From sequence record MH675927.1: a stretch of 64,000 nt of DNA. One strand, given 5' to 3'. Below, piece by piece: positions 4,204 to 64,000 of this stretch (positions are counted from its first letter, which is position 1; the number at the start of each line of letters is the position of its first letter). The DNA is from Escherichia phage vB_vPM_PD114. Below the pieces are notes generated by a model that did no database searches, was not told where the DNA came from, and saw only the letters and a program-made list of their open reading frames with translations. The translations under genes and the position numbers were made by a program.

Positions 4204-6165
4204 GTGATTTTAACACGTCCAAATAGTGCCATTGCAGACATGGTAGAGTCTCGCTATAGAAAGCGTAGAAGTTTTGCAAGTGGTTTTACCTTAAGAGATG
4301 CTCGTGAAGCATTGCTCTTTGAAGCTGACGGTAACTACTATCAGTGGAAAGGTTCTCTACCTAAAGTTGTACCTGCTAACTCTACTCCTACATCTACTGG
4401 AGGGATTTCAGATACAGCTTGGAAAAATGTGGGTAATGCAGATGACATTGCTCAAATAGAATCAGAATTAGATGCTATTGAAGCTGAAATTGAAGATCTT
4501 AGAGAATCCATCCCAGAAGCTGGTAAATCAGCTTACCAGATGGCCGTAGACAATGGTTTCCAAGGTACTGAGACACAGTGGTTGGCTTCTTTAAAAGGTG
4601 ATCCAGGTGCTCCATTAAAGCTATTAGGGACACTATCTAATACCAACCAATTACCTACAAGTGGAAACAATGCAGGGGATGCATGGATTGTAGGCGAGAA
4701 TATGTATGCTTGGGATGGTACTGCTTGGAGAAAAGTAAACTCACAGGGGCCAGAAGGTAAATCTGCTTATGAAGTATGGCTTGCAGCAGGAAACGAAGGT
4801 ACAGAACTAGATTATCTTGCCGCAATTAAAGGTGATAAAGGGGAGCCTGGCCCAGAGGGGCCACAAGGTGTGCCAGGTAACAATGCTAATGGTTTTGATT
4901 ACCAAGGTGCAGCTAATTCCGTTTCAGATCTTCCTTCTGCATCTCATGGAAACACATCTCAAGCATGGAGTGTTGGTACATATCTATACGTGTCAAACGG
5001 TGTAGAATGGATCAATATGGGCGCTATAGTGGGGCCAAAAGGAGATAAAGGCGACAAAGGAGATAAGGGTAACACTGGTGATTCAGCTTATCAAGTCTGG
5101 TTAAATGCTGGTAACGTTGGTACTATTGACGAATATATTGCCTCTCTGAAAGGAGAAAAAGGTGATAAGGGAGACAAGGGTGATCAAGGTGAACAGGGTA
5201 TACAAGGCTTGACGGGGCCAACTGGTGCAGGGTTGACCATTATTGACATTCTGACTAGCACTTCTGAACTGCCACAAACTGGAGAAGAGGGTGATGGTTA
5301 TCTGATCAATAATGAACTTTGGGTCTGGTTGCAAGGAGCCACAGAGTGGACAAATGTTGGTCGTTTAGCTGGTACTCCAATCACTGCAAAAGGACACGTT
5401 GCGTCTGCAAGTGCACTTCCTCCTACAGCTAATTACGGTGATGCTTATCTGACGGAAGATACAGGTCATCTTTACATTTACACCTATGATGAACAAACTC
5501 AAACTGCTGAATATGTAGATATGGGTAGTTTGAAAGGTGATAAGGGTGAAAAAGGTGACGCTGGTACTAACGGTACAGACGGTGCAACTTGGATTGTTAA
5601 AACAACAGATCCAATCTCTAGTGATGGTAAACAAGGTGATTATGCCTTTAATATCTCCACTGGCGAGGTGTTCTTAAAAACATCTGCAACTGTCTGGACT
5701 TCTCAAGGTACACTACCTAGTATCACAGATGCACCTAGTGATGGTAAGACTTATGCTCGTAAAGATGGAGCATGGGAAGAACTCACTAGTTCTGTAGATG
5801 GTCAAGATATAGTTCCAACAAAAGTAACAACTAATTTTATAGAGGTTACAGCATATACCAACAATTCTGTTACAGGGGACTGGACACCTCCAGGAACACA
5901 TAACATGAATGTGTTGAATCTTACTGGTAACTCTACTATAAAAGCATGGCCTGGTGTCGAAGATAGCACAAAACCTAAACCATTCTCTGCAATAGTTTAT
6001 CTTATCCAAGATGCCACTGGAGGTCATACTGTTACTTTAGATCCATCTTACAAAGTAATTGGTTCTAGTGATATTAATACAGATCCTAACGGAGTAACAA
6101 TACTACAACTAACATATTGTGGTGTTGGCGATTACGTGGATGCTATTGTTGCTAAACGCACATAA
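4204..6165 (+). CDS. tail fiber protein with collagen-like Gly-X-Y repeats
   Basis: GTG start with GGAG RBS; GDKGDKGDKG and GEKGDKGDKGDQGEQGIQGLTGPTGAG runs; 653 aa. Confidence 0.65.
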   Translation: MILTRPNSAIADMVESRYRKRRSFASGFTLRDAREALLFEADGNYYQWKGSLPKVVPANSTPTSTGGISDTAWKNVGNADDIAQIESELDAIEAEIEDLRESIPEAGKSAYQMAVDNGFQGTETQWLASLKGDPGAPLKLLGTLSNTNQLPTSGNNAGDAWIVGENMYAWDGTAWRKVNSQGPEGKSAYEVWLAAGNEGTELDYLAAIKGDKGEPGPEGPQGVPGNNANGFDYQGAANSVSDLPSASHGNTSQAWSVGTYLYVSNGVEWINMGAIVGPKGDKGDKGDKGNTGDSAYQVWLNAGNVGTIDEYIASLKGEKGDKGDKGDQGEQGIQGLTGPTGAGLTIIDILTSTSELPQTGEEGDGYLINNELWVWLQGATEWTNVGRLAGTPITAKGHVASASALPPTANYGDAYLTEDTGHLYIYTYDEQTQTAEYVDMGSLKGDKGEKGDAGTNGTDGATWIVKTTDPISSDGKQGDYAFNISTGEVFLKTSATVWTSQGTLPSITDAPSDGKTYARKDGAWEELTSSVDGQDIVPTKVTTNFIEVTAYTNNSVTGDWTPPGTHNMNVLNLTGNSTIKAWPGVEDSTKPKPFSAIVYLIQDATGGHTVTLDPSYKVIGSSDINTDPNGVTILQLTYCGVGDYVDAIVAKRT

Positions 6166-52416: not shown

Positions 52417-52634
52417 TATTTTGAAAATTTTTATTTTTATAAAAAGGGGTGTGGGTTTCATGTACGGAAATCCACCCTCTGAATAATATATCCAGAGTAA
52501 GTAGTATTCTGTACTCTGTTAATAAAGTATTTAATTTGTTTGTTGGACTATGATATCTGATCTTTAAAAGGCATACTATCTCTTAACTACTACTTATAAC
52601 AAAACAGTAAAATCCTTTTTATAAAAAGTACAAA

Positions 52635-52840
52635 ATTATTTAAAGTTTTTACAGATTTTCGGGTACAAATTTTGAAAATGAAAAGTTCAAGTTTGGTCAA
52701 AATTATTTAAAGTTTTTGTACGTATTTCTATCCAGATTTTGAAAATGAAAACTTCAATTTTTTAAAAATTCCCCAGTTTATTTAAAGTTTTTTTGCCTTT
52801 TTCCGTAGAAAAATCAAAAATGAAAAGTTCAATTTCGTGT
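52635..52840. repeat. three tandem direct repeats of about 66-76 bp
   Basis: Each unit has TTATTTAAAGTTTTT (52635, 52701, 52777) and TTTTGAAAATGAAAAGTTCAA (52671, 52737, 52811). Confidence 0.7.
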
Positions 52841-52855
52841 TTTTATAGGTGTGTT

Positions 52856-52967
52856 AATGAGAATCATTTTCGTTTGTAAATGAGAATCATTATCATTTAA
52901 CTATGTAAGTGATAATCATTCTCAGTAAGAGAATGAGAATCATTAGCAAATGAGAATTTTTCTCATT
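52856..52967. promoter_or_regulatory. cluster of Fur-box-like palindromic sites (AATGAGAATCATT family)
   Basis: At least five copies; AATGAGAATCATTATC (52879-52894) matches 15/16 positions of the E. coli Fur consensus; perfect palindrome AATGAGAA-TTT-TTCTCATT at 52948-52966. Confidence 0.45.
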
Positions 52968-53229
52968 TACAGAATAACGCGCAGGGGCGGTGTTTGTCTC
53001 GCGCTCCCGTGTCCCCTCGCCATACAATAAGAATAGCATAACCAACAACAAAAGCAAGCGATTATTTTTATCTTTACATTTCTTTACAAATTTATTTTAG
53101 ACGAGCTACCGGCGATCAACCTTCCAACCAGTGCCCCCTGGTATGTTAGCCCCGCCTTTACGCCGTGGGGGTGGCGTTTCCTCTTCTGTATGTAAAACAG
53201 TATAAGCCCGATCCCTGGGCTTGTCAAGA

Positions 53230-53496
53230 TTATTTTTTGTTTTCTTGCCAGGATAGGACACCTAACCAAAAATACATGTCGCCCCGCGCCCCTGGTGGGA
53301 TCTTGCTTTCCCCGCCGCCACTGCAAGCCCATAGATAACCATTTACGAACGTATCAAAGTGATCTATCTCTTCCACCTTATGATCGCCCAGGTTGAGAAC
53401 GGTTTCAACCTTTAAGCCCGTTGCGCTTGCTACCTGGTGCACCGTGCCGCCTTGCCAGCCCAGTGAGTGCATGAGATGTAAAGGAGTATTTGTCAT
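53230..53496 (-). CDS. hypothetical protein in a G+C-rich island
   Basis: 88-aa ORF with RBS AAAGGG; region is visibly more G+C-rich than its surroundings; no motif recognised. Confidence 0.35.
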   Translation of the reverse strand: MTNTPLHLMHSLGWQGGTVHQVASATGLKVETVLNLGDHKVEEIDHFDTFVNGYLWACSGGGESKIPPGARGDMYFWLGVLSWQENKK

Positions 53497-53607
53497 GGTA
53501 TCGCCCTTTCTTTGTTGTGCGCCCTGGTTGGCGCGGTAGAAAGATGATAGCCGTTTCCTTTATAGATAGCAAGCAAAAAAGAAATGAAAAAAGATTAAAA
53601 AAAATGG

Positions 53608-53636
53608 TTGACGTTCCTCACCTGGTAGCGTAGTAT
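53608..53636 (+). promoter_or_regulatory. sigma70-like promoter (TTGACG-17-TAGTAT), first of the rightward early-gene array
   Basis: Near-consensus hexamers with 17-bp spacer about 130 nt upstream of 53765. Confidence 0.5.
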
Positions 53637-53764
53637 TCATCTTGTCGAGGGGCGGCAAGGCACAACGACAATAAACAATAGGCGGGTGCAATGCAAGACG
53701 GGCAAAGGTGAGGATCTCCACAATCCACCGTCACAATAACATTACTTATAAAAGGTTGATAACA

Positions 53765-53869
53765 ATGATCAAGAAAGAAAATAGCTTGACGGTTGGAACG
53801 ATTAACGCTATCATTCTTGCCGTTCCCTTTTGGATTGTAGTGTCAGTTATTATTTCAATCATTCTATAA
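53765..53869 (+). CDS. small membrane peptide (34 aa; not in ORF track)
   Basis: ATG with AAAGG RBS; hydrophobic. Confidence 0.3.
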   Translation: MIKKENSLTVGTINAIILAVPFWIVVSVIISIIL

Positions 53870-53879
53870 GGCGCACACT

Positions 53880-54161
53880 ATGAGCAAGGTAATTAGTCAT
53901 AAAGAGTTAAGCCCTACTCTTTCAATGAGTGAGTGCACCGATGGCTTTTGGCTGTATGATGATACGCGCGGCATGAATTTAGCTATGCGTGAAAAAACAG
54001 AAGAGGCGGCGTATATTGAAGCCCTGGAATACTACCAGGAACGACTAAAGGAAGTAGAAAACAATTATAATAACCTAAAAACAAAGGTAGATCATTTTAT
54101 CAGCCAGGTGGCAGATGACGACGATGATCACTATTGCGAGCGGTGCGGATCATACAGCTAA
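53880..54161 (+). CDS. hypothetical protein
   Basis: 93 aa; acidic DDDDD tract and C-terminal CERCG. Confidence 0.45.
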   Translation: MSKVISHKELSPTLSMSECTDGFWLYDDTRGMNLAMREKTEEAAYIEALEYYQERLKEVENNYNNLKTKVDHFISQVADDDDDHYCERCGSYS

Positions 54162-62877: not shown

Positions 62878-62907
62878 ACAAGGGCGCAATAAGCGCCCTT
62901 TCTTTTT
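62878..62907 (+). terminator. rho-independent terminator (GGGCGC-AATA-GCGCCC)
   Basis: Same hairpin as at 57997; followed by TTTCTTTTT. Confidence 0.7.
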
Positions 62908-63111
62908 ACCTCAATAAAGATGATATCTTTTACCTATCAAAAACGTTCACCGAAAAAGTGAATAGATCGCGGTATCGAGCTAATCAAGGAGCAGATGAAC
63001 AACCATACCATGAAGATCATAAGGCGCTTACAACGTGTTTTAGACCGCTTATTTTTAATTTCTTCATGCAACTATCTGGCAAAAACAGCCTTTTTCTTGT
63101 CTTTCCTCTTA

Positions 63112-63184
63112 AATGATAATCATTCTTATTTATAGCTGATTATTTATGCAATAAACTGAATAATGTAATAATGATAATCATTCT
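63112..63184. promoter_or_regulatory. two Fur-box-like sites (AATGATAATCATTCTTA)
   Basis: ATAATGATAATCATTCT (63168-63184) matches 16/17 positions of the E. coli Fur consensus; second copy at 63112-63128. Confidence 0.45.
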
Positions 63185-63911
63185 TAACTTAAGACCATCT
63201 AACCTATAAAATAATAAGTTATCTAACTAAATTAAAACTAATTATCTCACCTTTATTTATAACTTACTGTTACTATGTCATTGATAACCTTATATTAAAC
63301 AACAATAACTAATATAAATCATTACTAAGCTAAATATAATATATCTAACCTTTAAAACTATAACTATAATCTATTGAATTATTGCACAAAGTAACTATTA
63401 AATCGTTAGTAACATTACTAAATAATTCATATCCTATCTATTTATAATCTAACCTTTATCTTCCTATCTATTACCTAAGTAATCATTTCATACAATAATT
63501 ATAACAAGAAATATAATTAGCAAGCGTATCATTAGCAGCCTATGCCGGACACATAGGCGGCTAATAATAACGCAACTACACACCTCACATAATAACCATC
63601 ACCGATAGTTATTATCTGTGCTTATGTAGCTTGCAACAACTGCAAGCGCAACAATATACATGGTATATTGTATTCCCTTACATTGTTGCGGTGCGTTATT
63701 ATTAGCTAATGTTTGGAACATTGGCTATAATATAAGCTATCCAATAATAAACATAGTGAATAATGACCCTGATGATCATAATGCGCCACCTTCCAGGGGG
63801 CGCTATGTGAACACAAAGAAATCTTTCTTGTCAAGAAAAATATTACCATTATTGCGCAAAATTATTTACATCTGAATAGATGGTTTTTCATACTATTGCC
63901 CCCAATACTAT

Positions 63912-64000
63912 CCCTATTTGTTGTTATTTGTTGGATAAAATTATCCCTATTTGTTGCAGTATAAACTATTATTTGTTGCCCTAACTATTGCTATTTGTTG
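63912..64000. repeat. iteron-like direct repeats (C)TATTTGTTG, at least five copies, running to the window edge
   Basis: CCCTATTTGTTG at 63912 and 63945; TTATTTGTTG at 63924 and 63969; CTATTTGTTG at 63991. Confidence 0.6.

Follow-up and report, generated by a model that had tools for sequence, protein, structure and literature searches.

Gene-free, repeat-bearing DNA at the probable right end of the unique sequence of a phi92-like Escherichia phage

The 64,000 nucleotides of Escherichia phage vB_vPM_PD114 analysed here (record MH675927.1; the whole stretch is called the window below) close with more than a kilobase of AT-rich DNA, positions 62908-64000, and the question that this locus raises is what such DNA is for. 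A preliminary description, made from the letters of the window, had offered three answers, namely an origin of replication, a packaging or terminal-repeat boundary, and a partition site. Comparison with related phages leads us to the second of these: the region would probably be packaging or concatemer-junction DNA, a unique gene-free stretch abutting the right terminal repeat (DTR) of a phi92-like phage.

Over this region the source phage is 92-97% identical to at least 55 Justusliebigvirus records, the matching genomes being phi92-like members of the Stephanstirmvirinae of 145-150 kb each. By this match the window is from Justusliebigvirus, a phi92-like myovirus of E. coli. Four records labelled as 'Campylobacter phage' (MG065639, MG065645, MG065656 and MG065689) are also ~92% identical to the region; their host labels are probably wrong, or the sequences contaminants. 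The 64-kb window holds no tRNA genes, though phages of the genus carry 10-16, and the cluster must sit elsewhere in the genome.

With a GC content of 30%, against ~38% over the window, positions 62908-64000 form part of a gap that in the relatives is ~1.75 kb long, lacks genes and is bordered by two clusters of small genes that run in the same direction; the window therefore covers just the first 1.1 kb of it. On the upstream side, the + strand small-gene cluster is closed by a Rho-independent terminator (62880-62908, + strand; hairpin at 62880-62900), composed of an 8-bp stem with six GC pairs followed by TCTTTTT. The terminator hairpin is found also in muut, AMO3598, phAPEC8_ev052 and KP13-26. 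Beyond it, only small ORFs are present. One of 71 amino acids (63660-63875) was rejected as a gene, because a 1-nt indel shifts its frame in muut and in a relative from IMG/VR. Another, of 46 amino acids (MNNHTMKIIRRLQRVLDRLFLISSCNYLAKTAFFLSFLLNDNHSYL; 62995-63135, + strand), has an AGGAG site and is a doubtful gene: it is unbroken in all five Justusliebigvirus sequences checked, its start codon is absent at the syntenic Phapecoctavirus position, and the ORF is limited to the genus. The end of this ORF overlaps the first of the Fur-like boxes described below. The earlier picture of over 1 kb of AT-rich DNA, without a convincing ORF, after a terminator is thus borne out.

A common order of elements is recognisable in Justusliebigvirus, Phapecoctavirus and the Klebsiella lineage: terminator, conserved block, two Fur-like boxes, G-poor tract, hairpin module, TGTTG units and finally the terminal repeat. 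The conserved block (GTGAATAGATCGCGGTATCGAGCTAATCAA; 62958-62987, + strand), read by eye, is near-identical in Phapecoctavirus and partly kept in the Klebsiella lineage. The G-depleted, AT-rich tract at 63190-63510 (+ strand) has only 4% G, with a GC content of 21%, and contains ATCTAACC three times. Its G content is the lowest among all 300-nt segments of the 64 kb (mean 17.9%, sd 3.8), and the syntenic tracts in three other lineages are likewise G-poor, at 5.7-10.4% G. The hexamer ATTAGC is enriched ~9-fold in the region and reaches 12 copies in KP13-26. Just upstream of the hairpin module lies a single copy of the 16-nt unit TAATCATTTCATACA(A/G) (63480-63495, + strand), which occurs in tandem in relatives, twice in AMO3598 and four times in muut (locus L001, 4682-4743, annotated there as a repeat_region). 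A GC-rich hairpin, GCGCC-N11-GGCGC at 63783-63803, is not followed by a T-run and was seen in this genus only.

The window ends with an array of short direct repeats. Five copies of (C)TATTTGTTG occupy 63915-64000 on the + strand, starting at 63915, 63925, 63948, 63970 and 63992 and hence spaced by 10, 23, 22 and 22 nt. Exactly five copies exist in the 64 kb, all on the + strand and all in the final 86 bp, where ~1.5 scattered occurrences would be expected; the preliminary count of at least five near the window end is confirmed. The number of copies varies among genomes that are 92-97% identical: one in PD06-like genomes, two in phi92 and muut, four in BME3, and five in AMO3598, W22 and the window. 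The spacers separating the copies also vary from strain to strain. Other lineages of the subfamily have one to three copies of longer upstream units, built of GGGGCGAAA, a small GC hairpin and ATGTTGAGCA, the hairpin varying in sequence with its complementarity kept.

The array had been expected to continue past the window edge. Relatives show otherwise: in AMO3598 the copy matching the last one of the window runs directly into the terminal repeat, and in W22 the matching copy is followed by one extra copy and then by the repeat. The array is therefore, judging from the relatives, no open-ended field of iterons, and ends at the virion terminus. The last copy (63992-64000, + strand) corresponds to the left half of a predicted terminal cut site, TGTTG^AGC(C/A), the DTR of the relatives beginning at the next base.

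The genome end can be placed through annotated and self-repeating ends in these relatives. In phi92 (FR775895.2 / NC_023693) the GenBank features, from which the end positions were taken, give PHI92_DTR-L at 1-343 and PHI92_DTR-R at 148270-148612, two identical copies of 343 bp. DTR-R is preceded by ...CCTATTTGTTG (in longer context ...ATATCCTATTTGTTG) and begins AGCCTACTTTC / AGCCTACTTTCTTAAAAG. Its boundary falls between window positions 64000 and 64001, so that the window ends one base before DTR-R. When repeats were sought in which the first N bases of a record equal its last N bases, BME3 (Justusliebigvirus) yielded 342 bp, Schickermooser (Phapecoctavirus) 329 bp, and phi1_175008 and FKP3 (both of the Klebsiella lineage) 343 and 317 bp, respectively. 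Identical sequence at both ends is accordingly found in relatives (317-343 bp), the window itself halting at the boundary. In phi92, BME3, phi1_175008 and Schickermooser the boundary is the same, the repeat starting after TGTTG and ending CGCGTT(A), and W22 likewise has the step from TGTTG to terminal repeat. The FKP3 boundaries are shifted 12-13 nt inward at both ends, which may be an offset from library preparation. Published values are 342 bp for BME3 by PhageTerm (PMC12210895), 317 bp for FKP3 by PhageTerm (PMC11663894) and 328 bp for Schickermooser by sequencing (PMC6563267). Since these relatives duplicate 317-343 bp at both ends, a cohesive-end (cos) packaging site was ruled out.

Record ends tell the same story. 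The records of W22, PHB05, VEcB, UAB_1 and phi92 begin at the boundary base, and that of PD06 ends there on the opposite strand, some of these matching starts perhaps merely copying phi92. The source record most likely ends at the terminus like that of W22, and the ending of the window on TGTTG is probably no accident. Our statements on genome ends draw throughout on relatives, on the annotations of depositors and on read-start analyses by others. Taken together, a DTR starting right after the last TGTTG in several lineages of the subfamily and the published repeats of 317-342 bp favour the boundary among the answers offered at the outset. The preliminary description had coupled a stop of the array with absence of a read-start signal; the array does stop, while such a signal is reported exactly here in relatives.

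Some irregularities were met in the records used, and those of BME3 and FKP3 were relied on with caution. That of BME3 (loci L007/L008, PP239276) is mis-assembled, with an extra partial terminal copy containing Ns and a chimeric junction of AAAGGG with TGCCGGACACATAGG, and its DTR feature is 73 nt off the true 342-bp end repeat. The FKP3 record (loci L009/L010, PP895363) also looks mis-assembled, with its 317-nt unit present three times. Within the AMO3598 repeat (locus L002, 5328-5435), a 108-bp segment is inverted relative to muut (L001, ~5305-5415), BME3 and most genomes. This invertible segment is flanked by the inverted repeats GGCACTATT / AATAGTGCC, and the inversion is the reason that a boundary search finds two match places per record. 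After the right boundary of the repeat (L002, 5625-5745), a motif approximating GGGGTGTGTCGAAATAAT..GGTATA occurs twice; it is common to Justusliebigvirus, Phapecoctavirus and the Klebsiella lineage and may represent phage-specific promoters.

Alignment of the boundaries across lineages reveals a motif shared by the two sides of the repeat. The left boundary reads (A)TGTTG^AGCAC(C)TTCTCTTAAA, which in Justusliebigvirus takes the form TATTTGTTG^AGCCTACTTTCTTAAAAG, and the right boundary reads CGCGTTA^AGCACCTCTC. Upstream of both boundaries stand a G-rich run and an A-run, which read GGGGCGAAA at the left one and GGGG..CCYGAAAA at the right one. In the relatives, then, GTTR^AGCAC is present at both DTR boundaries in the same orientation. 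By this alignment the last TATTTGTTG of the window is shown to be the left half of the putative cut site TGTTG^AGC, and the upstream iterons would be extra copies of that left half. A motif in the same orientation at both boundaries leaves unexplained, on its own, how one repeat becomes two at each junction; a recent review describes duplication of the repeat at the concatemer junction as poorly understood (PMC13595956).

The second element that bears on the function of the region is a multi-hairpin module of 180 nt (63529-63708), situated ~300 bp upstream of the boundary and comprising six helices. Hairpin H1 spans 63531-63565. The long-range stem S2 pairs 63560-63574 with 63692-63706 (GCTAATAATAACGCA / TGCGTTATTATTAGC); the others are stem S3 (63576-63580 with 63625-63629) and hairpins H2 (63589-63615), H3 (63629-63647) and H4 (63648-63691). 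H3 is the palindrome GCTTGCA-ACAAC-TGCAAGC, present as previously reported, and its stem is invariant in all lineages; a pattern scan of IMG/VR for this palindrome returned three loci only. The module is the only part of the region with sequence conservation across genera, at ~77% identity.

Conservation of the fold was assessed quantitatively with a covariation set of 10 sequences from ~5-6 lineages. Of the 48 pairs of the consensus fold, 13 show compensatory double changes, and pairing holds in 98.1% of cells, a result that no shuffle out of 500 attained; slid controls were 20-47% paired. Folding z-scores of -5.9 and -6.6 were obtained for the module, and the S2 stem exists in four versions, each perfectly complementary. 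G.U pairs are almost missing, amounting to two of 478 cells on the + strand and eight on the - strand (0.4-1.7%), a near-absence that fits pairing at the DNA level better than a structured RNA. There is weak indication that the - strand is the folding strand (five independent events against one for the + strand). The invariance of H3 suggests sequence-specific recognition by a protein. A scan of the homologous 9.2-kb locus against Rfam 15 gave nothing credible, the best E values of 0.5-0.8 lying far below gathering.

Two Fur-like boxes lie between the conserved block and the G-poor tract, as the preliminary description had noted. Site 1 (63109-63127) has its core AATGATAATCATT at 63112-63124; site 2 (63167-63185) matches 16 of the 19 positions of GATAATGATAATCATTATC, the 19-bp E. 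coli Fur operator used here as the consensus, and carries an exact core AATGATAATCATT at 63170. Chance does not readily account for them: AATGATAATCATT with at most one mismatch is matched nine times in the window against 0.27 expected, and matches of the 16/19 type to GATAATGATAATCATTATC number four against 0.03 expected. A Fur-like box at the position of site 1 is found in phAPEC8_ev052 and KP13-26, and the two boxes are positionally kept in all three lineages compared. The DTR of relatives holds two further Fur-like boxes (AMO3598, L002, 5292-5310 and ~5470-5505), with counterparts in Phapecoctavirus and the Klebsiella lineage. One of the two in AMO3598 agrees with the consensus at 17 of 19 positions and comes directly after a promoter-like site, TTGATT-17-TATAGA. 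The DTR boxes suggest that the first early transcript is controlled by iron, or that Fur is titrated. Promoter-like sites on the + strand of the region are seen at 63184-63212, overlapping Fur box 2, and at 63721-63748. A sigma-70 promoter scan found six matches against 8.6 in shuffled sequence, that is, no enrichment, and statements on promoters are correspondingly weak.

The window contains a second large non-coding gap, at 52417-53880, with ~30% GC. A 67-nt unit is repeated in tandem there two to three times (52631-52761 and further on); Fur-box-like sequences are arrayed at 52853-52947, with three sites at no more than three mismatches from the 19-bp consensus, and then comes a GC-rich, structured-looking stretch at 52970-53300. 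An origin or a regulatory hub might instead lie in this gap.

We favour the following account of how packaging or concatemer-junction DNA of this kind would work. The virion DNA would be linear with a short exact DTR of ~340 bp, and in replicating concatemers 62908-64000 would adjoin the genome junction on its left side. The DNA would be cut at TGTTG^AGC, the related GTTA^AGCAC marking the other DTR boundary. The upstream TATTTGTTG copies most likely bind or position terminase, like the cosB R sites of lambda, and it is their position and conservation that make them candidate terminase sites. The terminator at 62880 may serve to keep transcription of the upstream genes out of the cis-acting zone. 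The hairpin module would be part of the junction apparatus, and could be either a recognition element or a source of DNA hairpins for duplicating the single DTR of the junction, as has been proposed for T7. Most of the 1.1 kb, including the Fur boxes, the G-poor tract and the ATTAGC motifs, is left unaccounted for by the packaging reading. A more specific and rather unlikely proposal is that the hairpin module and the G-poor tract together make up a device based on single-stranded DNA or R-loops at the junction, priming either T7-like duplication of the DTR or replication, with GTTR^AGCAC as the terminase cut site.

Several rival readings were weighed as well. The region might be mainly a zone of transcriptional control, with Fur-controlled promoters, a possible non-coding RNA in the hairpin module and early expression set by iron, the TATTTGTTG units then being activator or UP-like sites for a promoter just inside the terminal repeat. 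The Fur-like boxes conserved in position in three lineages speak for this, as do the two in the relatives' DTR (one a 17/19 match after a promoter-like site), the placing of the TATTTGTTG repeats ~40-130 bp upstream of the DTR promoter-like site, and the + strand promoter-like sites at 63184-63212 and 63721-63748. Yet promoter-like matches fall below the shuffled expectation (6 against 8.6), and the module has neither an Rfam match nor a flanking promoter-terminator pair. Its G.U content of 0.4-1.7% is unusual for a structured RNA, and the coincidence of virion ends with the last repeat would go unexplained. We regard control as the main role as possible but doubtful; it is in any case compatible with packaging rather than an alternative to it. 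A different objection concerns the array alone. Since PD06-like genomes make do with a single copy and phi92 with two, multiple copies are non-essential and possibly by-products of slippage, and all but the last copy might be functionless scars of slippage or repair beside an end that is recurrently cut and recombining. The spread of one to five copies among genomes 92-97% identical, the variable spacers and the changing number of nearby short tandem units agree with this. Other lineages, however, keep one to three upstream units that are differently built (GGGGCGAAA, a complementary hairpin, ATGTTGAGCA), and this argues that a repeated module is being selected for, not that scars arose at random. 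On balance, scars seem rather improbable.

It may also be asked whether the region is an origin of replication or has one in addition, in which the G-poor tract would be an unwinding or R-loop zone, and the hairpins, ATTAGC and TATTTGTTG would be initiator or priming signals. In its favour are the tract itself, the most extreme in the window and with conserved G depletion, the covarying hairpin cluster adjoining it, the ~9-fold enrichment of ATTAGC with 12 copies in KP13-26, and the non-Watson-Crick cells, which favour folding of the - strand (eight G.U against two) and fit a leftward transcript entering the tract. Furthermore, secondary origins of T7 sit at end-proximal promoters. Against it, DnaA boxes with at most one mismatch are absent from 62908-64000 and occur window-wide at the chance count, no initiator gene is recognisable nearby, the neighbours being small and by annotation hypothetical, and GC-skew turns at ~8 kb and ~47 kb, in step with the orientation of genes, and not here. 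Skew in the related phage rV5 similarly shifts only where the orientation of transcription changes (PMC3606486). The gap at 52.4-53.9 kb with its 67-nt tandem repeats is an equally good candidate. Nor does the array behave as iterons of an origin would: of three or more repeats kept in number there is no sign, with copies ranging from one to five among relatives, and an adjacent AT-rich element with DnaA or another initiator is missing, the tract being 400 bp from the repeats. With DnaA boxes absent, a single copy in one relative and no adjacent initiator gene found, the origin proposed in the preliminary description receives no support from our tests, and we consider it unlikely. The partition (centromere-like) site, for a plasmid-like state, fared worst. 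Short direct repeats are all that recommends it, and it was dropped on grounds of lifestyle and linear ends: the phage group is virulent, with myovirus morphology and linear, terminally repeated DNA, ParA/ParB-like genes are not annotated in the 9-kb neighbourhoods of the relatives, and the repeats run precisely to the virion terminus and no further. Its probability is close to nil.

Packaging or concatemer-junction DNA being the preferred reading, the result fixes the physical right end of the unique sequence of the phage and accounts for the window stopping on a repeat. The terminal repeat was already annotated in phi92; the shared cut-site motif, the half-site array and the covarying module may be new. 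Testability could come from just these features, namely a conserved motif at both boundaries, a variable array of half-sites and a covarying module nearby. If the proposed junction device were real, a large group of myoviruses would become a tractable system in which to study the regeneration of exact terminal repeats. The Fur boxes around and inside the repeat hint, in addition, that a virulent phage may be under the control of iron or may titrate Fur.

Among known systems, phi92 is of the same genus and its region is ~91% identical, with the context ...CCTATTTGTTG^AGCCTAC... shared. It differs in having two repeat copies, one of them degenerate (TATTTGTTA), against five in the window, and its record annotates the DTR alone, leaving the flanking repeats, the hairpin module and the cut-site motif unannotated. 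The iteron origins, such as lambda ori and plasmid oriV, resemble the present region in having direct repeats near an AT-rich tract; here, in contrast, the repeats are of 9 nt, fall to as few as one copy and lie 400 bp from that tract. A closer likeness is to lambda cosB, in which the R1-R3 sites for the small terminase subunit adjoin the cosN nicking site. In both cases several copies of a short motif in the same orientation lie next to a terminase cut site, binding in the present case being putative. Lambda has 12-nt cohesive ends, however, rather than a 340-bp terminal repeat, and no IHF-like site turned up when 63700-64000 was searched.

The closest analogue is T7, which shares with the phi92-like phages short exact terminal repeats and a gene-free stretch of short direct repeats reaching up to the right repeat. 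In T7 the 170 bp before the 160-bp terminal repeat carry arrays of CCTAAAG-like heptamers (SRR), with the promoter phiOR upstream. There is no similarity in sequence, and T7, a podovirus, has an RNA polymerase of its own. The T7 heptamers also continue inside the repeat, whereas the TATTTGTTG copies stop at the boundary, and the non-coding zone measures ~240 bp in T7 against ~1.1 kb here. On the left side of the T7 junction, Chung, Nardone and Hinkle (1990) reportedly described an inverted repeat that folds into a hairpin of DNA, for which a role in priming the duplication of the terminal repeat was proposed. The hairpin module may be its counterpart and, by analogy, could play a corresponding role in phi92-like phages.
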